A DNA stretch of 64,000 nucleotides from Verrucomicrobiia bacterium (GCA_036272195.1 DATAZE010000049.1:1-64000); one strand, 5' to 3'; positions 1 through 51,023 are shown, numbered from the stretch's first letter. Program-made: numbers and translations. The notes: a model not told the origin generated them from the sequence alone.

Positions 1-211
1 GCAATGGACCGACGGCATGTTGTACCCGGTATTGCATCGGATGGAAAACAACGGCTGGATCAAGTCGCGCTGGGTGAAGATGGAGAACGGCCGGAAGCGG
101 AAATATTATTCGGTGAAAAAGGACGGGACGCGCGCGCTCGACGAACAGCGCGCGCAATGGCTTAAAGTCCACAGCGTTCTGACTCAATTATGGGGAGAAC
201 AATATGCGTAA
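1..211 (+). CDS. PadR family transcriptional regulator (5' partial, window starts inside gene)
   Basis: C-terminal PadR-like winged-helix motif (LYPVLHRMENNGWI...YYSVTKDG...). Stop TAA 209-211 overlaps ATG of next gene (ATGCGTAA). Confidence 0.7.
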   Translation, partial: QWTDGMLYPVLHRMENNGWIKSRWVKMENGRKRKYYSVKKDGTRALDEQRAQWLKVHSVLTQLWGEQYA

Positions 212-1061
212 CCTCGAAGAAAAAATCGCCGATTGGCGCGAGCAAATGGCCGCGGGGGGAATCAAGTCGCCCACGATCCTCGACGAATTGGAAAGCCATT
301 TGAGAGAGGAGATTGATATCAGGCTGGCTTGCGGCGACTCGGAATCCGCTGCTTTTGAACGCGGGGTTGTTTGGATCGGAACCCCGGGTGCGATACAAGC
401 CGAGTTCAACAAGGTGGAACGTACAGGTTGTCTGCCAATGAAAATTGGCGCAACGGTGTGGGCCGTATTGAGTCTCGGGGAGGCGATTGTGTTGTCGGGG
501 CTAATGTTTTCCGGAACGCTTCATTTACTCGTCGCGACACATATTTTTTGCCTCTGCGTGGGATATCTGGCGTCTTTTATCACCGGCGGATTGGCCATCT
601 ATTACGCTTACCGCCATTGGTTCGGGAACTTCTCGACCGCACAGCGACAATCCGTGGAGCGTGCGGTTCTTTGGTTCAGCCAGGCTGCTGCCGGACTGGC
701 CGTCGTGGGGTTCATCCTCGGCGTTTTGTGGAGCATACAAAATAGCGGCACCTATTGGGGCGGCACTCCGCGGGAGATCGGAGGACTGTGCGCTTCGGTC
801 TGGCTGGTGGTTTTGTGGAGCGTGCAACAGTTTTTTCGGAAGGACGCTTACGCGCGTATGCAGGCGTGCATCGGCGGGAATGTAATTATTGGTCTGGCAT
901 GGTCCGGAGCCGTGGTTTTGAGCGGCGACTCTCTGCCACGCCACCTCGGCGATTATTGGTTTATCGAACTTTTCCTTGGCTTGCATCTGGTCGTCTTCGC
1001 GATGGGACTCTCGCGCCGATTGAGCGGGCTAAATCGTCAACGAAAGGAATATGGTGTTTAA
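204..1061 (+). CDS. membrane protein, paralog 1 of PadR-linked family (conserved ~65-aa N-terminal cytoplasmic domain + multi-TM region)
   Basis: N-term motif I-x-[DE]WR-x-QM-x-GGIK-x3-[IV]LDELESHLRE[ED] shared with ORFs at 1051, 1720, 2787, 48498(-). Hydrophobic TM segments after aa ~75. ATG overlaps padR stop. Confidence 0.6.
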   Translation: MRNLEEKIADWREQMAAGGIKSPTILDELESHLREEIDIRLACGDSESAAFERGVVWIGTPGAIQAEFNKVERTGCLPMKIGATVWAVLSLGEAIVLSGLMFSGTLHLLVATHIFCLCVGYLASFITGGLAIYYAYRHWFGNFSTAQRQSVERAVLWFSQAAAGLAVVGFILGVLWSIQNSGTYWGGTPREIGGLCASVWLVVLWSVQQFFRKDAYARMQACIGGNVIIGLAWSGAVVLSGDSLPRHLGDYWFIELFLGLHLVVFAMGLSRRLSGLNRQRKEYGV

Positions 1062-1707
1062 CCTCGATCCAGCAATCACCGAGTGGCGGCGGAAAATGGC
1101 TGCCGGTGGAATCAAATCCCCCGCCGTGGTGGACGAACTCGAAAGCCATCTGCACGAAGACGTGGAACAGCAAATGCGAGCCGGAACCAGCGCCCGGGAG
1201 AGCGAGGCAAATTACCGCGTGAGCAATTAACCTCAAGCGGGTCAAAACAATATGCTTGAACTTGACCAGGCCAGGAGAAACCGGACACGAATGCTTTTGC
1301 AACGATGGTCGCTCATTGTCGGAATTGCATTTGTCTATTCCACCATGGCGGTTACGTGGTTCATCGGTTTGCGGCAGGGAAAAATCGAACTCACGTGGAT
1401 CGAAGTCGTTCTCGCGTTGGGCGCGATGGCACCAATGGTCCTGCTGGGTCGCGCCGGGCGAGCGCTGGCGAAATTCCTGCCGCTCGTCCACGAAAACTGG
1501 GTCATTGTCATGGCGCTCTCTGCGCTCTTCCTCGGGGCGGCCGTATTGAGAACGTTTTTCAATGAGCTATCGCCGGCCAATCTCGTTCAGGTCCAGGTGA
1601 TCGCGCTCTGGAGCCTTTCGCCGACGCTTGGATTTGGAAGCTGCGTTTCGGCCTGGTACGACCGGTCGCTGGCGGCACGGGAGAACGCGAGGACGGTCAA
1701 CGTTTAA
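1051..1707 (+). pseudogene. paralog 2 of the same family, interrupted by in-frame TAA at 1228-1230 (N-domain 1051-1230, TM part 1252-1707 in same frame)
   Basis: 1051 and 1252 are in the same reading frame. Sequence across the stop (…YRVSN*PQAGQNNMLELDQARRNRTRMLLQRWSLIVGIAF) aligns with the paralog 4 linker (…QQIGQLERLKAEFEKTETNERKLMKRGLIIGAGV). ATG at 1051 overlaps stop of paralog 1 (ATGGTGTTTAA). Confidence 0.45.
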
Positions 1708-1719
1708 AAAACTTCGGTT

Positions 1720-2781
1720 ATGTTCGATCTCGATCTGGCAATTTCGGAATGGCGGCGGCAAATGTCCGCTGGCGGAATCAAGTCGCGCGAAGTGCTCGCC
1801 GAGTTGGAAAGCCACCTGCGCGACGATGTAGAACAACAAATGCGCTCCGGCATCGCCGCCGAAAAGGCATTTCATGAAGCGGTGCGGCGGATTGGTCCCG
1901 CGGACAAAGTCCGAGTCGAATTTGCCAAGGTGGCTGCGCCTCCCGCACTGTCCGGCATGAAATTGTTGCGCGTTTGTTGTGCTGGCATGGCCGTGTTTAT
2001 TGCCGTCATTGAGACCTGGCTGCTGCTCATGTCTGAAGTGACACCGGTGGAGCGAATTTTAGGAATGACGTTTGTTTGTTTGATCGCGGCTTACGTAGGC
2101 GCCCTTCCCTATCTCAATCAAAGACTGTTTCCGGGCGTGCGCGGCGCTGCGCTGAGAAATGTGCTCGGCGCGGTCTGTAATTTCGGAGGATTGTTATGGG
2201 TGTCGCTGGCCCTCCTTGGCGCTTTGAACGTGATTCGTTTGCCGAATGGAATTCTTTTCGATCTAGTGGGCTGGTCACTGCTCGGCGCCGGGACCGCAAC
2301 GATTTTTGTGATCGCGCACGGAACTGATTGGGATCTGCTCGGGCTTTGGAGCCCGGCGGTCAAGCAGTGCTTTGAAACCGCCACCGAGGAGGCATTTCGG
2401 TTTCGCCACGATTTTGTCGGCACCGAACATGTGTTGCTCGGGTTGCTGCAATCCGATGACAGAATCGTTTCAAAGGTCTTGGGAAAGTTGGACGTAAGCC
2501 GCGAAACAGTGCGTGCAGAAATTGAAAAAATTGTCGGCCTCGGGCCGCAATTGCAATCGACCCCAAAACACGCACCGATTTACACACCACGGGCGAAGAA
2601 GGCCATCCGCCTCGCAATGAAAGAGGCGCGGGATTTGAAACGCGACCGTGTGGAAGCGGAGCACATTTTTCTGGGGTTGCTGCTGGAAGGCAGCGGCGTG
2701 GCGGCGCTGACTCTCAAAAACCTGGGCGTGAACCCCGGCGCTGCGCGCTACGAAATTCTCAAGGAATCACGCCTCGCTTAA
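1720..2781 (+). CDS. paralog 3: N-terminal family domain + ~4 TM helices + C-terminal Clp_N (ClpA/B/C N-terminal) double-repeat domain
   Basis: C-terminal ~140 aa: FVGTEHVLLGLLQSDD..VSKVLGKLDVS...TPRAKKAIRLAMKEARDLKRDRVEAEHIFLGLLLEGSGVAALTLKNLGVN = canonical two-repeat Clp_N fold signature. The N-term motif matches the family. Confidence 0.7.
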   Translation: MFDLDLAISEWRRQMSAGGIKSREVLAELESHLRDDVEQQMRSGIAAEKAFHEAVRRIGPADKVRVEFAKVAAPPALSGMKLLRVCCAGMAVFIAVIETWLLLMSEVTPVERILGMTFVCLIAAYVGALPYLNQRLFPGVRGAALRNVLGAVCNFGGLLWVSLALLGALNVIRLPNGILFDLVGWSLLGAGTATIFVIAHGTDWDLLGLWSPAVKQCFETATEEAFRFRHDFVGTEHVLLGLLQSDDRIVSKVLGKLDVSRETVRAEIEKIVGLGPQLQSTPKHAPIYTPRAKKAIRLAMKEARDLKRDRVEAEHIFLGLLLEGSGVAALTLKNLGVNPGAARYEILKESRLA

Positions 2782-2786
2782 CCAAT

Positions 2787-3215
2787 ATGTTCAACCTCGA
2801 ACACGAAATCGCGGAATGGCGGCAGCAAATGATCTCCGTGGGGATCAAAAATCCCGCCGTGCTCGATGAGTTGGAAAGTCACCTCCGCGAGGATATGGAG
2901 CACAGAATTCTGTATGGCGAAGCGCAAGACACCTTTCAAAAGGCAACGCAACAAATCGGCCAACTGGAACGGCTCAAGGCGGAATTTGAAAAAACGGAAA
3001 CAAACGAAAGGAAGCTTATGAAACGAGGTCTCATTATCGGCGCCGGAGTCATTGGCATTTTGGTAGGCATGGGGTTTGTAACACCGGCAGTGGCGCAATA
3101 TCAGCATGAAGGAGTGATGAAGAACGCCGAACCGTGGTTGTTTCTACTCGGAAGCCTGCTCACGCTGGCGAGCTTTGGTTTGGCGATTCGAGGCCTGAAA
3201 AAGAGCCGGGCTTGA
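2787..3215 (+). CDS. paralog 4: N-terminal family domain + 2 TM helices
   Basis: MFNLEHEIAEWRQQMISVGIKNPAVLDELESHLREDMEH... followed by hydrophobic segments. Confidence 0.6.
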   Translation: MFNLEHEIAEWRQQMISVGIKNPAVLDELESHLREDMEHRILYGEAQDTFQKATQQIGQLERLKAEFEKTETNERKLMKRGLIIGAGVIGILVGMGFVTPAVAQYQHEGVMKNAEPWLFLLGSLLTLASFGLAIRGLKKSRA

Positions 3216-3258
3216 TTACCCTCCCCCGGACACGTCCTTCTCCGCGCCGAAATTTGTT

Positions 3259-3287
3259 TTGCGCGGAACCACCGGCAAAGCTATTTT
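3259..3287 (+). promoter_or_regulatory. putative sigma70 promoter for tRNA-Gln (TTGCGC-17 nt-TATTTT)
   Basis: -35 TTGCGC 3259-3264, 17-nt spacer, -10 TATTTT 3282-3287, 10 nt before mature tRNA 5' end. Same architecture as the promoter upstream of tRNA-Arg(CCG). Confidence 0.4.
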
Positions 3288-3297
3288 CCTTTCGGCT

Positions 3298-3371
3298 TGG
3301 CCGATGGTGTAATGGTAACACAGTGCCCTTTGGAGGCATTATTCATGGTTCGAATCCATGTCGGCCAGCCA
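3298..3371 (+). tRNA. tRNA-Gln (anticodon UUG), CCA encoded
   Basis: Manual cloverleaf: acceptor TGGCCGA/TCGGCCA, D-stem GTGT/ACAC, anticodon stem GTGCC/GGCAT with loop CTTTGGA (U33, anticodon TTG, R37), T-arm CATGG-TTCGAAT-CCATG, discriminator G. Confidence 0.85.
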
Positions 3372-3425
3372 CTTCTTTCCCCTTTTACCCATTTTTGATT
3401 TACGACCGTGTGGCCGTCTCATCGA

Positions 3426-8212: not shown

Positions 8213-9625
8213 ATGGAAACCGCACCCACTCCCCCGCCATCCTCGGCTCCGCCGCCGATTATTGCGTCCGTTCCCAAAAAAACCAAAAAAAGTCGCAAGA
8301 CACTTTTCTTCATCATCGGCGGCCTGCTGCTTGTGGTGATAGTGGTGGTAGTGGTCATTTTGCGGGGAAGAAAACCGCCCATTATCGTTCAGACCGAAAA
8401 AGTGGCGCGGCGTAACATCACGGAAGTTGTCGTTGCGAACGGCAAAATCCAGCCGGTCACGGAAGTGATGATCAGTCCGGAAGTCGCCGGCGAAATCGTC
8501 GCGTTGCCGGTCAAGGAAGGCGACCACGTGAAGAAAGGCGACTTGTTGGTGCAAATCAAGCCGGACAATTATCAGGCCACTCGCGACTCCGCGGATGCCA
8601 ATTATCGTTCGGCGCTGGCCAACAAAAGCCTGGCACAGGCGCAATTGGACAAGGCCGAGGCGGAATACAAACGCAACCTCGAATTGTTCCAGCACAAGCT
8701 CGTTTCGGATTCGGTTTTTCTGGACATCAAAACCACCTACGAAGTGGCCAAACTGCAGCTTGAAACCGCATCGCACCAGGTCGACCAGGCCAAGTTCGGG
8801 CTCGACAACGCCAACGCCGATTTGAGCAAGACGACCATTCTTTCCCCGATTACCGGCACTGTCGTCCAGTTAAAATCACAACTCGGCGAGCGCGTGCTGG
8901 GCACGTCGTTCAACATGGGCACCGAAATCATGACGGTGGCCGACTTGAACGAAATGGAGGCGCAGGTGGACGTCGGCGAAATGGATGTGGTGCTGATGCA
9001 TCCCGATCAGAATGCGCGCCTGGAAGTGGATGCGTTCAAAGACCAGAAATTCAACGGCACCGTAACCGAAGTGGCGAATTCAGCGAAGGGTTTCAGCTCG
9101 AGCGCCACCGCGTTGGGCGGAGGCAGCAGCGCGACCGGAGACGCCACCAAGTTTGAGGTGCATATTCGAATCAAGGAAAAGGAACTGTTCCGCCCGGGCA
9201 TGTCAGTGACGGCGGAGATTGAAACGCGTTCGCGCACCAACGTAATGGTAGTGCCCATCGCGAGCGTGACGGCGCGGTTGCCCAAGCCCGCGAAGGATCT
9301 GGCAAAAACGAATTCACCAGCAGCGGGCACGAATGCCAGCGTGGCATCGTCGTCGACCACCACAAACGCGGTGAAGACGGACAAGAAAGCGAAAGAAGGA
9401 CCCAAGCAAATCGATGTCGTGTTTGTGGTGGAAGGCGATCATGTGAAGATGGTCCCCGTGAAAATCGGCATCAGCGACGACAATTACTGGGAGGTAACCG
9501 ATGGTTTGCAGGAGGGACAGGACGTGGTTTCGGGCGGTTATCACGCCATCAGTCACGATTTGGAGGACGGCAAAAAAATCACCAAGGGCCCGGCCCCGAT
9601 GGGCGGTGAGAAGAAAGAAATGTAG
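8213..9625 (+). CDS. macA: efflux RND/ABC-type periplasmic adaptor (membrane fusion protein, MacA-like)
   Basis: HlyD/MFP architecture: N-terminal TM, coiled-coil hairpin, beta-barrel motifs ([12 protein letters not shown]..., MVVPIASV). First gene of the macAB-ftsX operon. Confidence 0.8.
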
Positions 9626-9675
9626 AGCCCGCCAACGCCGAAAATAGCGGCGGCCACAAATCGCCGCTACCAAAC

Positions 9676-10362
9676 ATGAGCCTCATTCGACTTCACAATA
9701 TTTCGCGCCGCTACCAAATGGGCACGGAAACAGTCCACGCGTTGCGCGAAGTTTCGCTGGAAATCCAGCGCGGCGAATACGTCGCCATCATGGGGCCGTC
9801 CGGCTCCGGCAAATCTACTTTGATGAATCTGCTCGGTTGCCTTGATACACCCACGGCTGGGCAATACGAACTCAACGGCATCCAGGTCAGCGAAATGGAT
9901 GACAACCGGCTCGCCGAAGTGCGGAACAAGGAAATCGGGTTTGTTTTTCAAACCTTCAACCTCCTGCCGCGTTCCGATGCATTGCGCAATGTGGAATTGC
10001 CGCTGATTTATTCCGGCATGCCCAGCGAAGAACGCCGCCGCATCGCGCTCGAAGCGCTGGCAAGCGTTGGTTTGGGCGATCGCATTCATCATCGGCCCAA
10101 CGAACTTTCCGGCGGCCAACGGCAGCGGGTGGCCGTGGCGCGCGCGCTGGTGAATCGGCCTTCGATTCTGCTCGCGGATGAACCGACCGGAAACCTCGAT
10201 TCAAAAACGGGCGAAGAAATGATGGCCTTGTTCGAGCAGCTTTGGAGCAAGGGAAACACAATCATCCTGGTCACTCACGAAGAGGACATCGCCCGGCATG
10301 CCAAGCGGGTCATTCGCATACGCGATGGATTGATTGCCAGCGATGAGCGGATGGATGGATAA
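9676..10362 (+). CDS. macB: ABC transporter ATP-binding protein (MacB/LolD family)
   Basis: Walker [10 protein letters not shown], signature [15 protein letters not shown], Walker [14 protein letters not shown]-loop. Confidence 0.9.
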
Positions 10363-10866
10363 ATGGATTGGTGGATTTTTGGATGAACGGTTGGGCGACA
10401 GCTCTCAAAACTGTTTGTTCTTATGGAGTATACAAAACGAAGGAATTTGAATCGAGGATATATGAAACTCGAAGCGTGGCAACGCGGTATGGATTTATTT
10501 GCCATGGCATATCGCATGTCTGGGCATGTTTCTGACTTCAAACTCAAATCGCAATCCAGGGACTCCGCTCAGTCAGTTTCTGCAAACATTGGGGAAGGCT
10601 ATGGCCGTCGTTCACTGCCCGAGTACCTGCAATTTCTCTACATCGCCAAAGGTTCACTTGCCGAAACGCTCACTCGCGCGATAGGGTTCCGTAGCGTCGA
10701 GACCCTGTCCAGCGACGACTTCGAAGAATTTGATAAGCTCCATTACGAAGTGGAAAATAAGCTTTTACGCCTCATCGAATCACTTGAATCCAAGCGCGAG
10801 AGGAATGACTGGCGCGACACATTGCCATCCAGCAATCCAAAAATCCAGCCATCCATTTATCCTTCC
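10353..10866. mobile_element. four-helix-bundle gene cassette bounded by ~38-bp imperfect inverted repeats (10353-10390 / 10829-10866)
   Basis: GGATGGATAAATGGATTGGTGGATTTTTGGATGAACGG vs reverse complement of right end GGAAGGATAAATGGATGGCTGGATTTTTGGATTGCTGG (~34/38). Left IR overlaps macB stop, right IR abuts ftsX start. Confidence 0.5.
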
Positions 10867-10872
10867 CGATGA
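10462..10872 (+). CDS. four helix bundle protein (TIGR02436 / 23S-rRNA intervening-sequence protein family)
   Basis: MKLEAWQRGMDL...ANIGEGYGRRS..EYLQFLYIAKGSLAE... is a strong family signature. GAGGA SD 6 nt upstream of ATG 10462. Confidence 0.85.
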   Translation: MKLEAWQRGMDLFAMAYRMSGHVSDFKLKSQSRDSAQSVSANIGEGYGRRSLPEYLQFLYIAKGSLAETLTRAIGFRSVETLSSDDFEEFDKLHYEVENKLLRLIESLESKRERNDWRDTLPSSNPKIQPSIYPSR

Positions 10873-12095
10873 ACTTCCTGACCGAGTTACGCGAAGGCCT
10901 GGCGATTTCCTGGAGCGCCATTCGCGCGAACCGGTTGCGCTCCGTGCTTGCCACCCTTGGCATCGTCATTGGGATTGTGACCGTCACACTGATGGGCACC
11001 GCTATCCAGGCGCTGAATCGCTCCTTCGAGAAAAGCATTTCGTTCATCGGCGGCGACGTCCTGTATGTGGATCGAGGCTCGTGGTTCATGCAATCCTACC
11101 AGGAATGGCGGGACTCGCAAAAGCGCCCGGCGCTCTCACTTTCGGAAGCGGATGGTTTGGCGGAACAACTCACACTTTCGAGCGCCGTGACTTCCGTGGC
11201 CTCCACCGATGAGCCGGTGAAATACAAAAAGCATAGCTCAGGAGGGGTTTCGATTGTTGGCACCACCGAGAATTTCATGTTCACCATGGGCTTTTCGATT
11301 GCTGAAGGCCGTTTTCTCTCCGGCCCGGAATGCGATTTCGGCCGACCCGTCTGTGTCATCGGAGCCACCGTGGCCACCAATTTGTTTCCGCACGAACCAC
11401 CGGTCGGGAACAAGGTGCTCATCGGCAATTTGCCGTTTCAAGTTGTGGGCGTGCTCGATAAACAGGGCGGGTTCGTCGATAAGAATGTCGATAACCAGGT
11501 GATGATTCCCATGCCTCAATATATTTCGCATTTCGACGATAGCCCCGACCTGCAAATTCAGGTGAAAGTGAAAGACATGGCGCAGGTGGATGAAGCCAAG
11601 GATGAATTGCGGCTGATCATGCGCCGCCTGCGTCGACTCGCGCCAAATGACCCGGACAATTTCGCCATCAATCAGCAGGACCAGATCCTCACCATGTTCC
11701 ACGCGGTCGCCGGGACTATTGGAGCCATCGGGCTTTTTGTCACCGGACTTTCGCTGTTCGTGGGCGGCATCGGCATCATGAATATCATGTTTGTGTCCGT
11801 GGCCGAACGAACGCGTGAAATCGGCATTCGCAAAGCCATCGGCGCGAAACGGCGAACAATCCTCCTCCAATTTTTAATTGAAGCCGCGAGCATTTGCCTT
11901 ATGGGCGGATTCATCGCATTGGCCATCGCGTGGCCGATGACGTTGTTGATGCAACGGATGATGCCGGCGGAGTTGTCGTTGAATGTGGCTGGTGTCGCGC
12001 TCGGCGTGGCGCTGGTGACGGGTGTGCTGGCGGGATTTTTTCCCGCGTGGCGGGCGGCAAGGATGAACCCGGTGGATGCACTTAGGAACGAATGA
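10869..12095 (+). CDS. ABC transporter permease, FtsX/MacB-like (4 TM + periplasmic domain)
   Basis: N-term LRSVLATLGIVIGIVTV, large periplasmic domain, C-terminal FtsX motif ERTREIGIRKAIGAKRRTI. Confidence 0.85.
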   Translation: MNFLTELREGLAISWSAIRANRLRSVLATLGIVIGIVTVTLMGTAIQALNRSFEKSISFIGGDVLYVDRGSWFMQSYQEWRDSQKRPALSLSEADGLAEQLTLSSAVTSVASTDEPVKYKKHSSGGVSIVGTTENFMFTMGFSIAEGRFLSGPECDFGRPVCVIGATVATNLFPHEPPVGNKVLIGNLPFQVVGVLDKQGGFVDKNVDNQVMIPMPQYISHFDDSPDLQIQVKVKDMAQVDEAKDELRLIMRRLRRLAPNDPDNFAINQQDQILTMFHAVAGTIGAIGLFVTGLSLFVGGIGIMNIMFVSVAERTREIGIRKAIGAKRRTILLQFLIEAASICLMGGFIALAIAWPMTLLMQRMMPAELSLNVAGVALGVALVTGVLAGFFPAWRAARMNPVDALRNE

Positions 12096-12103
12096 ACAAT
12101 CAT

Positions 12104-12653
12104 GGTGGGGCGAGACTCCGTCGAGCCCTATCTAATTATGAATCCGAACGATTCAAATATTGAAGTCGGCAGAAAAAATCCATCAACGGGCGTCCACGTT
12201 CATTTTGGAGAATCAACGATAGTGTTGTTGACTGTGACCACTGAAAACAGGATGCCTTGGCTGGCGAATCCGCTTGCCGACCGGCTTCTGCGAGAAACCT
12301 GGCAAGACGCGAGAGCGTGGCTGGTTGGCGACTACCTGTTAATGCCCGATCACCTTCATGCCTTTTGCGCACCCCAAGACTTTTCATTTTCAATTGAGCA
12401 ATGGATGACTTTTTGGAAGCGCGATTTTCGGCGACGACATGGCCGGGAGGATTGGCGCTTTCAATCTCGTGGCTGGCATCATCGCCTTCGCCATGGCGAA
12501 GACCACTCCACCAAGTGGCTTTACATTCAGGAAAATCCGGTTCGTAAAGGACTTGCGAACAGAATCGAGGATTGGCTGTACAAGGGATCAATTCATTACA
12601 TCAGATGGTAACTCGCAACAAAAGATCAGGGCTCGACGGAGTCTCGCCCCACC
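12104..12653. mobile_element. RAYT unit: REP-associated tyrosine transposase gene flanked by perfect 26-bp inverted repeats
   Basis: 12104-12129 GGTGGGGCGAGACTCCGTCGAGCCCT; 12628-12653 is its exact reverse complement. Each arm is itself an imperfect hairpin. Inserted between the two ftsX genes. Confidence 0.7.
12138..12611 (+). CDS. REP-associated tyrosine transposase (RAYT, IS200/IS605-like Y1 HUH transposase)
   Basis: HUH motif PDHLHAF, C-terminal catalytic Tyr region WLYIQENPVRKGL. Collinear with E. coli YafM/TnpA_REP (VLPEHMHCIW; YIYINPVKHGWV). Alternative start ATG 12102 overlapping the left IR. Confidence 0.8.
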   Translation: MNPNDSNIEVGRKNPSTGVHVHFGESTIVLLTVTTENRMPWLANPLADRLLRETWQDARAWLVGDYLLMPDHLHAFCAPQDFSFSIEQWMTFWKRDFRRRHGREDWRFQSRGWHHRLRHGEDHSTKWLYIQENPVRKGLANRIEDWLYKGSIHYIRW

Positions 12654-12697
12654 GTAGGGGGGCACTCCTTCTCGCCGAGCTAAACGAAAGCTTTCGC

Positions 12698-13906
12698 ATG
12701 GGCATGGGCGCTTTGGCGGCGCACAAGTTGCGTTCGGCGCTCACGCTGCTGGGCGTGCTCATCGGCGTGTTTTCCATCATCGTGGTGATGACCGCCATGC
12801 GCGTCTTGCAGCACAATGTCGAGGAGAACCTCAGCCAGATGGGCGCCCAGACTTTCATGGTCCGCAAGGCTCCAATGATTTTTTTCGACAGCCCGGACGG
12901 ATTTGAAAAATTCCGGCGGCGGAAAAATATCACCATGGCCCAGGTAAAACGGCTCGACGATAAAACAACCTTGCCGGCGAGCATCGGAATGGAAACGTCG
13001 TTTTGGGCGGGTGAAATGCAGACCCGCTACGGAAAAAGCGCCCCCGATGTGCCCGTCTTCGGCGAAACCCCCGGCAGTTTTCCCGCGCATAACTGGATCG
13101 TGCAGGACGGGCGCGCCTTATTGGAAATGGATGTGGACGGCATACGCGATGTTTGCGTGCTGGGCAACAAGCTTGCCGAAACTCTTTTCCCGCACAGCCC
13201 GGCGCTCGGCGAATGGTTAAAGATCGACGGCATCAATTATTTGATCATCGGCGTTCTTGAATCCCGCGGCGGCACGCTCGGCGGCAACCAGGATAATTTT
13301 GTCGTGATGCCCATCACCACCGGCTTGAACCGTTACGGACGCTATGGACGCAGCTTGAATGTGCTTGTGGAGGCGCGCGATGCGGCGAGTTACAACGCCA
13401 CGGAGGAGGAAGTGCGCGGCGCGTTGCGGGTCATCCGCAAGGTGCCGCCGGGAGAGGAGGACGACTTCGAGCTTTTTTCCAACGATTCGATGATCTCGCA
13501 GTTCAACGATTTCACGCGCGCAGTCCGCATCGGCGTGGCACTGGTCAGTTCGATCGCGCTGCTCGCCGCCGGGATCGGCATCATGAACATCATGCTCGTC
13601 TCCGTCACGGAGCGAACGCGCGAAATCGGCATCCGCCGCGCCGTGGGTGCGAAGAAGCGCAACATCATGGCACAATTCATCATGGAAGCGATCGTGTTGT
13701 GCGAGGTGGGCGGCGTGATCGGCGTGGGGTTGGGTATACTCGGAGGAAATGTCCTGGCACTGGTCTTGAAATTGCCGCCGGTGATCCCGGTGGATTGGGT
13801 GGTGCTGGGCCTGTTGATTTGCTCGGTGGTGGGAGTTGTGTTCGGGACTTATCCGGCGTTTAAAGCGGCGAATCTGGATCCGATTGAGTCATTGCGATAC
13901 GAATGA
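12698..13906 (+). CDS. ABC transporter permease, FtsX/MacB-like (second permease)
   Basis: KLRSALTLLGVLIGVFSII..., ERTREIGIRRAVGAKKRNI. The ORF-track start 12572 lies inside the RAYT gene. First ATG after the right IR is 12698; the native start may have been displaced by the insertion. Confidence 0.75.
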   Translation: MGMGALAAHKLRSALTLLGVLIGVFSIIVVMTAMRVLQHNVEENLSQMGAQTFMVRKAPMIFFDSPDGFEKFRRRKNITMAQVKRLDDKTTLPASIGMETSFWAGEMQTRYGKSAPDVPVFGETPGSFPAHNWIVQDGRALLEMDVDGIRDVCVLGNKLAETLFPHSPALGEWLKIDGINYLIIGVLESRGGTLGGNQDNFVVMPITTGLNRYGRYGRSLNVLVEARDAASYNATEEEVRGALRVIRKVPPGEEDDFELFSNDSMISQFNDFTRAVRIGVALVSSIALLAAGIGIMNIMLVSVTERTREIGIRRAVGAKKRNIMAQFIMEAIVLCEVGGVIGVGLGILGGNVLALVLKLPPVIPVDWVVLGLLICSVVGVVFGTYPAFKAANLDPIESLRYE

Positions 13907-48003: not shown

Positions 48004-48498
48004 TCAATGTTTGGCCAGGCTTTGCTTCTTCGCAAACCACAAGGCAATCGTCGCGATCCATCCAAAGGCGATCAGGACCGACCACAGCGTCGCGTGCAAG
48101 TAAGGCACATTGTAGGAGTCATAGAGTCGATCAAAGTCGCCGCCCTTCAGGGTTGGGATAACGATTTCGATTATCCAGCGGCTGAAATAGATTCCCGCCG
48201 TCGCCGTCGGGATCAGCCAACCGGTCAGTGAAAAAAAACGGATTGGTGTTTGCATGGTGTGTGTTGGTTTGAAACGGTCTACTTTCTTGAATTCCGCAAT
48301 AAGACGCTCGGGTTCTCCCAGACGTTGAAAGGCCTGTGCAAGTGCGCGTTGTTCGGATGTTCCCAAACTCGTCAACTGCTCGACCTCCTCGCGTAAATGC
48401 ATCTCCAATTCGTCCAGAGTCCGCGAACATTTAATTCCGCCTCCCTGCAACTGCTCTCGCCATTGCGCAATGACTATCTCCAAGTCAGGTGCGTTCAT
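48004..48498 (-). CDS. paralog 5 of the PadR-linked N-terminal-domain family (N domain + 2-3 TM), solitary copy
   Basis: MNAPDLEIVIAQWREQLQGGGIKCSRTLDELEMHLREEVEQ...LIAEFKKVD matches the motif of the genes at 204-3215. A 6-bp inverted repeat ACATAG-N5-CTATGT lies ~30 bp upstream of the track ORF start (48534). Confidence 0.6.
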   Translation of the reverse strand: MNAPDLEIVIAQWREQLQGGGIKCSRTLDELEMHLREEVEQLTSLGTSEQRALAQAFQRLGEPERLIAEFKKVDRFKPTHTMQTPIRFFSLTGWLIPTATAGIYFSRWIIEIVIPTLKGGDFDRLYDSYNVPYLHATLWSVLIAFGWIATIALWFAKKQSLAKH

Positions 48499-48734
48499 GC
48501 GCGTTTTATTCTCATCAGACATGGAATGCGACAATACATAGTGACGCTATGTATGTCAAGTGAAGTTATTGTATTGTGGATTTGTGAATTTCGCGGAACC
48601 AGATTACGATCCGCCCTCTCTTACAAAGGCGGGCATATCGGTTGAAGGGTGCCAAACCGAATGAATAGGGGTCGGTGCGTGAGAGTCTAACTTATATGAC
48701 ACGCCGTAGAAATCGCGTAAGTTAATTGTGAGAT

Positions 48735-51023
48735 ATGAAGGCAAAGCTTTTCCAAAGGTGCGGGTTGGCCCTCTTTCTGGCGCTCATCCCCCTTTTAGGC
48801 GGATGCGACCAGGAAACCGCCAATTCTGCGACCGTTCCCAATGTTGTCACCAGCCAACCGCCGGTTGACTCAACCGCAGCCCCGGCACCCGCCCTTGCCG
48901 ACACGAACCAAGCCGTAGCGCCGGCCGCGACGCCGCAGGAAACCGAGCAGGAATTGGAGAATGCCCCTGGGAAGATCATTTCCACACCGGATATAGGTTC
49001 CACTAACGTAAGCAATAACCCCCGCCTGACCGAACTCGTCAAACTGGTCGAGGCAGGACTTGGAGAAAACGTGCTGATTGCCTACGTCACCAATTCCCCA
49101 ATGGCTTTCAATATTTCCTCCGACGATATTCTCTATCTCAACGACTTGGGGACCCCGGAAACGGTGGTGACCGCGATGCTCCAGCGTGATCAGCAGGCCA
49201 ATCCCGCGGCTGCTCCGGTCGCGGCCACACCTGCTCCGGCACCCACTCAGCCACAATCCCCTTACCTTCCCTATGCCAATCCCGGGCCCGGGCAACCGCC
49301 GCCGCCCGCCGACGGAACTTATGCGGACCCGAACATGACCGCGCAAACCGACGTGGCTGTGCCGCCGTTGACACCCACGCCGGCTACCGAGGAGGACGTG
49401 CAACAGGCGCCCAACGGTTCCTATTCCTACTTTTGCGATTCATTGTCGCCCTACGGAAGCTGGGTTGATATCGAGGGTTATGGACCTTGCTGGCAACCGA
49501 CTGCCGTGGTCGCAAATCCCGGCTGGCAGCCGTATGGCGATCACGGGCATTGGGCATACACCGACAGCGGTTGGTGTTGGGTCTCGGATTATTCGTGGGG
49601 CTGGGCACCGTTTCACTATGGCCGTTGGTTCCGTCATGGCCGTTTCGGCTGGTGCTGGGCGCCGGATACCGTGTGGGGTCCCGCATGGGTAAGCTGGCGC
49701 TATGACAACTCTTATTGCGGCTGGGCTCCGCTGCCGCCGGCGGCTTGTTATCGTCCGGGATTCGGTTTCACTTATTTTGGACGTTCGGTCGGTTTCGATT
49801 TCGGTTTTGGGCTTTCGGCGAATTGGTTTGTGTTCGTCCCGCTAGGCCATTTTCACGATCGGGATTTTTACCATCACCGGATGCCGCATCGCGAAGTCAC
49901 TAAAATTTACGCCAACACAACCATTCACAACCAGATCATCCGCGGTAACCATAACAATCTCATCAACCGTGGAGTTCCGGTGGATCGCGTGGCAGCCGCC
50001 AGCCACACTCAAATCCACCCCGTCCGTATTCGCGCGGAGGCCAACGCGCCAAGATCCGGCCAACTGGATCGGGACGGCCGGTCCTTGTCGGTGTTTCGTC
50101 CTGCGTTGCCGGTTCCGAAGCCGAATAACAACGCGCGGTTGGTGGGCGAAGGTGTGCAGCCGAACCCGCAATTTAATCTGCATTCCCGTATCCAGCAGGC
50201 TCCCGTGCAGCATAATCGGGCGGTTACTGCCGGTCCCGGACGCCAGCCGATTATTTCCAATCCGGCAGGAACTCCGGGACGTGACAATCACCTGCCTCAA
50301 GCGGGCAACGAACGGCCGAATTCCATCATTATGCACGGACCCAACAACGGGAATTCATTACGCGGAAATCCCGCACAGACCGCGCCGCAAAATCTGGGGC
50401 ACGGGCCCGTATTCCAACCTCAAACTCCCGCGCAACCGGGACAGGAAAACAATCACCGCGTGGTTATTCCGCAAGGGCAACAACAATCAGGTCAACCAAT
50501 TCAGCCCACACCACGGCAGCAGAATCAACTGCCGCCGCCTACATTTAATCGTCCCATCAATAACGGACCGGACTTGCTACAGCAGCAGCAGCAACAGCAG
50601 CAGCAGCAACAGCAGCAGCAGCAACAGCAGCAGCGAGAACTACAGCAACGAGAATTCCAGCAGAGACAGTTTCAACAACCACAACAGCAGCAGCCAGTGA
50701 CGCCGACGCCGCGGCAAGACGGGCCGCCACGCGCTTTCGAATCACCTCGTGCGCGCGACCAGAATGCCAATCCGGGATTCCACTCTGAGCCGATCGCCCC
50801 CACGCCGCCTCAACGAAATTTTGAACCACGACAGGCGCCGGAAGTGCATTCAGCGCCACCGCAATTCAGCGCGCCAGCCCGCCAGGAGAATAACTCGGGC
50901 AGAAGCATTGGGGGCGGAGGCGGGAACGGCAATGGAAACGGTAACAATAATGGCGGCGGAGGCGGGGGCCGTGGTGGGAATAACGGTGGGGGCAATGGCG
51001 GCGGGGGCGGTCGCAATCGTTAA
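48735..51023 (+). CDS. Pro/Gln-rich lipoprotein with Trp/Gly-rich central domain, poly-Gln tract and Gly/Asn-rich C-terminus
   Basis: Lipobox LLGGC; P/A/Q-rich linker; W-rich block (YGSWVDIEGYGPCWQP...WCWVSDYSWGWAPFHYGRWFRHGRFGWCWAPDTVWGPAWVSWRY); Q18; C-terminal GGGGGNGNGNGNNNGGGGGGRGGNNGGGNGGGGGRNR. Confidence 0.6.
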   Translation: MKAKLFQRCGLALFLALIPLLGGCDQETANSATVPNVVTSQPPVDSTAAPAPALADTNQAVAPAATPQETEQELENAPGKIISTPDIGSTNVSNNPRLTELVKLVEAGLGENVLIAYVTNSPMAFNISSDDILYLNDLGTPETVVTAMLQRDQQANPAAAPVAATPAPAPTQPQSPYLPYANPGPGQPPPPADGTYADPNMTAQTDVAVPPLTPTPATEEDVQQAPNGSYSYFCDSLSPYGSWVDIEGYGPCWQPTAVVANPGWQPYGDHGHWAYTDSGWCWVSDYSWGWAPFHYGRWFRHGRFGWCWAPDTVWGPAWVSWRYDNSYCGWAPLPPAACYRPGFGFTYFGRSVGFDFGFGLSANWFVFVPLGHFHDRDFYHHRMPHREVTKIYANTTIHNQIIRGNHNNLINRGVPVDRVAAASHTQIHPVRIRAEANAPRSGQLDRDGRSLSVFRPALPVPKPNNNARLVGEGVQPNPQFNLHSRIQQAPVQHNRAVTAGPGRQPIISNPAGTPGRDNHLPQAGNERPNSIIMHGPNNGNSLRGNPAQTAPQNLGHGPVFQPQTPAQPGQENNHRVVIPQGQQQSGQPIQPTPRQQNQLPPPTFNRPINNGPDLLQQQQQQQQQQQQQQQQQQRELQQREFQQRQFQQPQQQQPVTPTPRQDGPPRAFESPRARDQNANPGFHSEPIAPTPPQRNFEPRQAPEVHSAPPQFSAPARQENNSGRSIGGGGGNGNGNGNNNGGGGGGRGGNNGGGNGGGGGRNR
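50580..50633 (+). repeat. (CAG/CAA)18 trinucleotide microsatellite encoding poly-Gln within the lipoprotein gene
   Basis: cagcagcagcagcaacagcagcagcagcaacagcagcagcagcaacagcagcag read directly from the sequence. Confidence 0.85.

Follow-up and report, generated by a model that had tools for sequence, protein, structure and literature searches.

A candidate many-sensor HAAS/PadR operon at the edge of a Verrucomicrobiae contig

A padR-headed array with a shared N-terminal domain

We analysed a 64-kb stretch of DNA from a Verrucomicrobiae metagenome-assembled genome (MAG) (GCA_036272195.1 DATAZE010000049.1:1-64000; the window, always taken at its full length). Its 5' end carries, on the + strand, the end of a padR regulator gene and, directly behind it, an array of genes for membrane proteins that begin with the same domain, assigned here to the HAAS family. 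An earlier note on this DNA had placed open reading frames (ORFs) at 204, 1051, 1720 and 2787, and all four starts were found there, on the + strand. It described them as four paralogous membrane proteins. The array turned out to hold three intact ones, g1 (204-1061, +), g3 (1720-2781, +) and g4 (2787-3215, +), and, in the second slot, a deletion scar made of a 59-aa remnant, g2a (1051-1230, +), and a 151-aa protein with four transmembrane (TM) segments, g2b (1252-1707, +). A fifth paralogue, g5, stands as an orphan on the - strand at 48004-48522 (172 aa from ATG 48522; tblastn E 1e-10 to 1e-17). The final gene of the array is g4, and its downstream boundary is a tRNA-Gln(ttg) gene identified with ARAGORN (3298-3371, +).

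The regulator had been correctly recognised, from a gene that is cut by the window edge: only the last 69 codons and the TAA are present (2-211, +), the 5' half and the promoter lying beyond. This fragment matches Pfam PadR (PF03551) at 2.6e-12 and 47 bits, for a cut-off of 27. The best NCBIfam model is TIGR03433 (padR_acidobact; 2e-17, 63 bits, cut-off 101.8), on which the full-length orthologue of the syntenic locus L004 scores 95.1 bits, just below the cut-off. Compared with that complete PadR of 110 aa, the fragment differs at 2 of 69 residues. A scan of metagenome contigs for exact matches to the window's first 60 bases, aimed at the padR 5' end, gave no match, and the close relatives L087-L089 were used in place of the window's own padR 5' region. 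At this edge (L001/L002), a JGI contig identical to the window starts just 14 nt further upstream, within padR, and some of the surveyed genomes have two padR-HAAS loci with near-identical padR and promoter. Because the contig ends inside padR and such near-identical copies exist, the assembly may plausibly have broken at a padR/promoter repeat present in several copies.

The genes of the array are tightly packed, as the earlier note had said. The ATG of g1 overlaps the padR stop (TAA 209-211) by 8 nt, that of g2a overlaps the g1 stop (TAA 1059-1061) by 11 nt, and the gaps ahead of g3 and g4 are 12 and 5 nt. Promoter-like and terminator-like sites within the array block show no excess over the shuffled expectation, and the window scan for operator-like palindromes (up to 3 mismatches) found none inside the array. 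Because the genes overlap or abut and such internal sites are not above chance, the proposed operon is plausible, and a single transcription unit from padR to g4 is the simplest reading of the sequence. At the other end, bases 3250-3400, which span the tRNA-Gln gene, are 92% identical to L005 7068-7217, just 3' of the array in that relative. L005 lacks g4 and has other flanking genes, yet the tRNA-Gln stretch is conserved; the end of the array appears to be anchored beside this gene.

The shared domain is about 72 aa long and is common to g1, g3, g4 and g5, with a partial copy in g2a. Searches of the window by tblastn with each 80-aa N-terminus gave mutual matches at E 1e-13 to 1e-20 and 41-64% identity, which bears out the N-terminal motif described earlier; they also picked up the g5 copy at ~48.3-48.5 kb on the minus strand. 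The C-terminal parts of the array proteins have no mutual similarity. In the DNA, the region coding for the domain appears as a 4-copy direct repeat of 140 nt with 61-74% identity. Among 1.84 billion proteins, a profile built from five N-domain sequences matched 4259 cluster representatives at E<=1e-3; with E<=1e-10 as the limit, 1580 remained.

The likeness to a permease prefix domain, which the earlier note had pointed out, was confirmed by profile searches. NCBIfam NF038403 (perm_prefix_1) is the top or sole match for every N-domain (13 of 13 at E<=0.1). For a cut-off of 30 bits, the g3 domain (~1720-1935) passes with 39.2 bits (42 as an isolated domain), and those of g5 (28), g1 (~204-420; 20.9), g2a (17.3) and g4 (15.6 bits) fall below. 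When the array proteins were scanned directly with Pfam, HAAS (PF22564) gave no match at E<1. The full-length homologues of g1 named P0297, P0313 and P0319 (~280 aa, E 1e-25 to 1e-32) match Pfam HAAS over residues 22-67 with 29-31 bits, the gathering score being 27 bits. Since these homologues pass the gathering score, we identify the N-domain as HAAS by transitive homology.

A structural model of the N-domain made with AlphaFold2 (confidence, pLDDT, 89) has helices at residues 4-17 and 23-42 and a third at 47-58 / 61-72, broken at G59-P60. The model agrees with the published description of HAAS as three helices of which the third is kinked. G59 is invariant across an alignment of 13 N-domain sequences, and the GxP region reads GTP in g1, GP in g3 and GEP in g5. 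Three other searches were less informative: the N-domain profile found nothing meaningful among PDB sequences, a fold search with the isolated domain was non-specific, and a word-indexed homologue search with the N-domain alignment returned mainly short fragments that say little on architectures.

Fused modules and the scar in the second slot

In g1, g3, g4 and g5 the HAAS domain lies N-terminal to TM or sensor modules. The C-terminal parts have 6 TM segments in g1, 4 in g3 and 2 in g4. These counts and the Clp_N domain of g3 stand as they had been described; the "split TM region" assigned to ORF 1051 does not, and is replaced by a stump and a separate ORF devoid of HAAS. The module of g1 is probably a CcsA-like heme-handling fold whose WWD motif is degenerate relative to the WGxxWxWD of CcsA/CcmC/CcmF (PF01578). 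In g3, the four TM segments (~1972-2313) are followed by a ClpC-type N-terminal domain (~2350-2763), which matches Pfam Clp_N at 1.4e-23 and the N-domain of Bacillus ClpC (4p15) at E 1.4e-30 over 138 residues. More than 100 full-length homologues have the same architecture, at 37-78% identity. The protein ends after this domain, with no AAA+ ATPase region, and we ruled out that g3 is a Clp/Hsp100 ATPase (ClpC): the double Clp_N is there but the AAA+ modules are not. Because the TM count is even, the ClpC-type domain is predicted to lie on the cytoplasmic side, along with HAAS. The small TM modules of g4, g2b and g5 match no known family (for g4, no significant Pfam family). Like g3, g1 has many full-length homologues, and g4 has an orthologue of the same length (142 aa) at the corresponding position in L004 and belongs to a module cluster with 25 members in the survey described below (C2).

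In relatives, the same N-domain precedes a prepilin peptidase (65.8 bits), the C-terminal half of TatC (84.5 bits), DUF998 and many unassigned modules; most of the other TM modules in the survey have no Pfam family. A CcmH match in one relative (25.7 bits) overlaps the N-domain and was judged unreliable. One fusion to prepilin peptidase (Peptidase_A24) is a 357-aa protein encoded at 822-1895 of L004, the closest syntenic relative, where it occupies the first slot and replaces g1 and g2. It has a GFGDVK motif, which we take to resemble the catalytic GxGD box, and because this motif is kept the module may still be an active protease. The TatC fusion, P0356 (222 aa), consists of the N-domain and only the C-terminal half of TatC (positions 89-208 of the 208 of the profile), a further fragment of a biogenesis machine in the position of the sensor.

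The second slot could be reconstructed by comparing DNA with two relatives. L089 is 93% identical to the window over 1166 shared nucleotides; the identity ends at base 1166, just after the codons for ELESHLxEDVE, beyond which L089 runs into a different module. Bases 1189-1262 are identical to L005 at 62 of 75 positions (83%), and the L005 stretch consists of the 3' tail of the second of its four array genes, a spacer and the ATG of the third. In the alignment, a 1-nt indel takes the g2a frame past the ancestral TGA to the TAA at 1228-1230, ATG 1252 falls on the start codon of the third L005 gene, and bases 1262-1340 align to that gene from codon 71 onward. Because bases 1189-1262 match this stretch of tail, spacer and ATG, ATG 1252 is an ancestral start codon, and g2b a gene that kept it through an in-frame deletion of about HAAS codons 4-70. 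By the same alignments, g2a is a HAAS stump (helices 1-2 only) joined to a foreign tail, the out-of-frame 3' end of a lost array gene. The TM module of g2b is 68% identical to an intact orthologue of 215 aa. A separate Logan assembly has the same structure, with ORFs of 59 and 151 aa.

The two ORFs share a reading frame, and we considered that g2 might be a single gene interrupted by a nonsense mutation or frameshifted twice. This was rejected: HAAS helix 3 is not present in the other two frames of g2, and the comparison with L005 and L089 reveals a deletion scar. A short start context, (A/C)ACAATATG...CT(C/T)GA, recurs at HAAS gene starts (198-217, 1246-1265 and 2781-2800), and its copy at 1246-1265 first pointed to ATG 1252 as the relic of a gene start. 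The order of the genes in L005 (C8-type, C1-type, C7-type and ClpN-type) suggests six HAAS genes in the ancestor of the window. It is exactly at the second slot that close relatives differ; turnover of sensor cassettes is visible in this array.

Related loci, promoter and operator

The survey took one genome per species and comprises 80 loci, mostly from Verrucomicrobiia MAGs and including the cultured Chthoniobacter flavus Ellin428, which has two simple padR-HAAS loci (L023 and L035). It is biased towards close relatives of the query, and MAG taxonomy labels outside Verrucomicrobiota need caution. In 76 of the 80 loci a padR gene was detected directly ahead of the HAAS genes and in the same orientation, and in 53 its start is exactly 325 nt ahead of the first HAAS start. 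These padR loci have one (36 loci), two (14), three (15), four (9) or five (2) HAAS genes, i.e., two to five in 40 of 76. In the remaining four loci no padR was detected: two of these are genes from within an array that stand at the start of a contig, one has a padR deletion remnant behind the promoter, and one has a PadR-like C-terminus upstream, as judged by eye. By similarity, the C-terminal parts form about 31 clusters. PadR is 91-95% identical between loci; in the ClpN-type partner proteins, identity is 61-71% for HAAS, 33-60% for the TM region and 49-73% for ClpN. The high conservation of PadR fits a constraint imposed by DNA and several partners.

An alignment of the padR upstream regions reads cgcTTGACATACATAg-N5-CtATGtATnGTGtnnCtATG. 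In the relatives, the padR promoter has a -35 box TTGACA, a spacer of 17 nt containing a 7-5-7 palindrome (consensus TACATAG-N5-CTATGYA) and a -10 box TATAGT or TATCGT, which ends 6 nt ahead of the padR start codon. Because this leaves no room for a ribosome-binding site between the -10 box and the start, the padR mRNA is predicted to be leaderless. Of 74 regions upstream of padR, 65 contain an RCAT-N9-ATGY core, whose end lies exactly 11 nt ahead of the start codon in 56; the background is 0.007 per 60 nt. When a stricter form of the palindrome was searched on both strands of ~0.87 Mb of surveyed loci, nearly every match immediately preceded padR or an orphan HAAS gene; the exceptions are in L078 and L085, which have second copies near padR. 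A version with a 6-nt spacer had no matches, and the spacer is 5 nt. L089, the relative that shares 1166 nt with the window, has the motif upstream of its padR.

The same promoter and palindrome precede the orphan g5, which encodes a short TM module, has no adjacent padR and lies ~45 kb from the array. Its predicted PadR operator/promoter (48531-48559, -), delimited from the sequence and a window-wide palindrome scan, consists of a -35 box TTGACA (48559-48554), a perfect palindrome TACATAG-CGTCA-CTATGTA (48553-48535) and a -10 box TATTGT (48536-48531), with the g5 ATG 8 nt downstream of the -10 box. This palindrome is the sole match in the window at up to 3 mismatches. Because a perfect operator precedes it, g5 is predicted to belong to the same regulon as the array. 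Divergent from g5, and sharing with its promoter and operator an intergenic region of 200 nt, is an ORF of 762 aa (48735-51023, +), whose product has a hydrophobic segment at the N-terminus, is rich in Trp and Gly in the middle and ends, after a stretch of ~18 glutamines, in a tail rich in Gly and Asn. Elsewhere, at L017 6893-7001, an orphan HAAS gene still has the promoter and operator ahead of it, and padR is deleted except for its first ~12 codons (MMRKELVAASAE...); L017 is a natural locus that lacks padR and bears the operator.

A PadR-linked membrane signalling module, as the earlier note had proposed, remains the best reading of these data, and the survey of genomic contexts agrees with it. 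The locus is probably a HAAS/PadR signalling operon in a form where many sensors serve one regulator. In the mechanism that we envisage, a PadR-type winged-helix repressor of 110 aa would be produced from a leaderless mRNA transcribed from a near-consensus sigma-70 promoter, and its dimers would bind the palindrome and repress their own operon and g5. The downstream genes would be translated by coupling. The proteins g1, g3 and g4 would each place the same HAAS domain at the cytoplasmic face of the membrane, each with a different module. If the HAAS domains are docking sites for PadR, the membrane proteins could capture or release the autorepressor, signals to the fused modules would shift the share of PadR held at the membrane relative to the operator, and several inputs would converge on one repressor. 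With the same promoter and operator, g5 would join this regulon. A shared partner is suggested by the conservation of the N-domain over paralogues with unrelated C-termini, and by a PadR far more conserved than its partner proteins. A partial experimental precedent for autorepression comes from Listeria (PMC6624303): the operons of the PadR-type repressors LltR and LstR, with genes for a DUF1700 membrane protein and a membrane RodA/FtsW homologue, respectively, are repressed by their own regulators.

Several points weigh against this interpretation. The contact between HAAS and PadR is itself a prediction in the published model. The window lacks the padR 5' end and promoter, and autoregulation here is extrapolated from relatives. 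The assignment to HAAS is not direct for the isolated N-domains, of which 4 of 13 match the Pfam model, all below threshold (best E 0.0026), and GxP is only partly kept: a P lies at most 3 residues away in 65 of 169 surveyed domains, and there is none in g4. Only HAAS genes are seen behind the operator, hence the operator is not known to control any separate output gene. Finally, g2b persists without HAAS, and PadR may therefore not be needed for the action of at least one module.

The last two of these points speak for the main rival explanation, in which PadR senses a small molecule directly, like the PadR/LmrR proteins that bind drugs or phenolic acids, and the HAAS membrane proteins are regulated output only. 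They would be protective or spare envelope components, and the N-domain would serve oligomerisation, localisation or stability. The operators, found only before padR-HAAS operons and orphan HAAS genes, leave the HAAS proteins as the sole visible output; the overexpression phenotypes in Listeria were traced to the operon's own membrane genes (PMC6624303); and g2b, without HAAS, is an intact ORF as similar to its orthologue as reported above. This account is unlikely in our view, if still the one to be taken most seriously. It leaves unexplained why one N-domain is kept on about 30 unrelated modules, why it stands beside padR in nearly all surveyed loci, and why PadR is conserved far above its neighbours, and a PadR of 110 aa is of the short, single-domain form.

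The signalling interpretation can be taken further, to a self-contained circuit that senses demand, an idea we put forward as speculative and consider rather doubtful as a whole. At the membrane, one highly constrained PadR would be titrated by as many as five or six proteins tagged with HAAS, each reporting the load on one biogenesis pathway. The sensors themselves would be the sole targets bearing the operator, and also the output, and their set would change among close relatives by gain and loss of array genes. Their bodies would be copied from the machinery of the envelope and of protein quality control: CcsA-like heme handling, prepilin peptidase, a TatC half and the substrate/adaptor-binding domain of ClpC.

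The deletion scar, with its stump and its ORF without HAAS, and the comparison with L005, from which the ancestor probably had two further HAAS genes, might also indicate that the array is a pseudogenising remnant whose function as a system is lost. This is very unlikely given that g1, g3 and g4 are intact, the first two with their many full-length homologues and the third with its L004 orthologue of the same length, that the gene overlaps are kept and that the orphan g5 has a perfect operator. Efflux permeases linked to PadR, like those of the acidobacterial ADOP family, share perm_prefix_1 and padR_acidobact, the best-matching PadR model, with this locus, but Pfam and NCBIfam scans found no FtsX or MacB_PCD domain in any array protein and the proteins are small (142-353 aa; the longest of 173 surveyed HAAS proteins has 441 aa), which refutes their membership of ADOP and makes a MacB-type system hardly credible. 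An anti-phage defence or toxin-antitoxin module under PadR control, which the variation of the array among close relatives might evoke, is as improbable: PADLOC models match neither PadR nor any array protein, the modules resemble envelope-biogenesis and Clp parts, and no mobile-element genes were seen in the inspected flanks.

The arrays are a tractable entry point to tests of the HAAS/PadR model. Their concrete, position-locked operator and promoter are open to direct assay. Several membrane modules that carry the same putative docking domain for one repressor allow experiments on competition and integration, and those with recognisable ligands or partners (the ClpC N-domain, the heme-handling fold and, in relatives, the prepilin peptidase) suggest signals to try. 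The HAAS-less g2b and the orphan g5, without padR, are built-in natural controls.

Comparison with known systems

The earlier note had held that this was not a described system, which proved incorrect. The dyad of HAAS and a PadR-like winged helix-turn-helix protein was described computationally by Ravi et al. (mSystems 2024; PMC11237479), with the domain in Pfam as PF22564, and was proposed as an alternative to two-component (histidine kinase/response regulator) systems. The listed fusions include FtsX/MacB permeases, RodA/FtsW and uncharacterised 6TM, 4TM and 2TM domains (PMC11237479), and a model of release from HAAS is stated in PMC11237479 and PMC12419801. The locus studied here is a variant of this known kind and not a new category. 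As in the dyad, a stand-alone padR directly precedes a gene whose product begins with a small helical domain, kinked in its third helix and joined to multi-TM or intracellular modules. It differs in having one padR for three to five tandem HAAS genes and an orphan elsewhere, ClpC N-domain and CcsA-like modules, a Verrucomicrobiota lineage, domains that in the window fall below the Pfam threshold, and a defined conserved operator with a predicted leaderless promoter; the turnover of cassettes and the operator in front of the orphan also set the variant apart. Neither Clp domains nor tandem arrays of HAAS genes are mentioned in the main text of PMC11237479. The operator, arrays of several genes served by one padR, and modules of the ClpC-N-domain and CcsA-like kinds are absent from the main text of both papers, the supplementary tables and the authors' web application being outside the search.

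Listeria monocytogenes has three comparable operons, LltR-Lmo0600 (DUF1700), LstR with a RodA/FtsW homologue, and LftR-LftS (DUF1048) (PMC6624303, PMC4517056). Mutation of LltR derepresses the genes of its own operon (PMC6624303), and deletion of LftS alone has no phenotype (PMC4517056). There too a PadR-type repressor is co-transcribed with a downstream protein of the HAAS superfamily, whereas the Listeria operons are from Firmicutes, have one partner gene per padR and carry other fused modules.

With the acidobacterial PadR (TIGR03433) and the ADOP permeases, the locus has in common the prefix-domain model NF038403 and the closest PadR subfamily model, but it lacks the FtsX/MacB permease body. 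Separately, the window contains a MacAB-like efflux cluster at 8213-13906 (+) (L002 8227-12795), made of a periplasmic adaptor, an ABC ATPase and two MacB_PCD/FtsX permeases, with a gene for a 23S_rRNA_IVP (four-helix-bundle) protein between the ATPase and the first permease. These permeases begin with MacB_PCD according to the contig annotation, have no match to the N-domain profile and have no padR adjacent.

The double Clp_N of g3, without an AAA+ ATPase, is like that of the stand-alone ClpC-N-domain proteins, mycobacterial ClpC2 and plant ClpT (PDB 9p2p, 8ad9, 4y0b), but in g3 the domain is anchored by 4 TM segments and coupled to HAAS. It is closer to the N-domains of ClpC proper (E 1e-30) than to ClpC2 (E 1e-8 to 1e-12). 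As a mode of regulation, the closest parallels are the membrane sequestration of repressors, such as Mlc by PtsG, and the pairs of anti-sigma and extracytoplasmic function (ECF) sigma factors, in which the state of a membrane protein decides whether it retains or frees a soluble transcription factor, and this regulator in turn controls its captor's gene. The likeness to these systems is one of analogy only, with no sequence relationship, and here several different captors would compete for one repressor.

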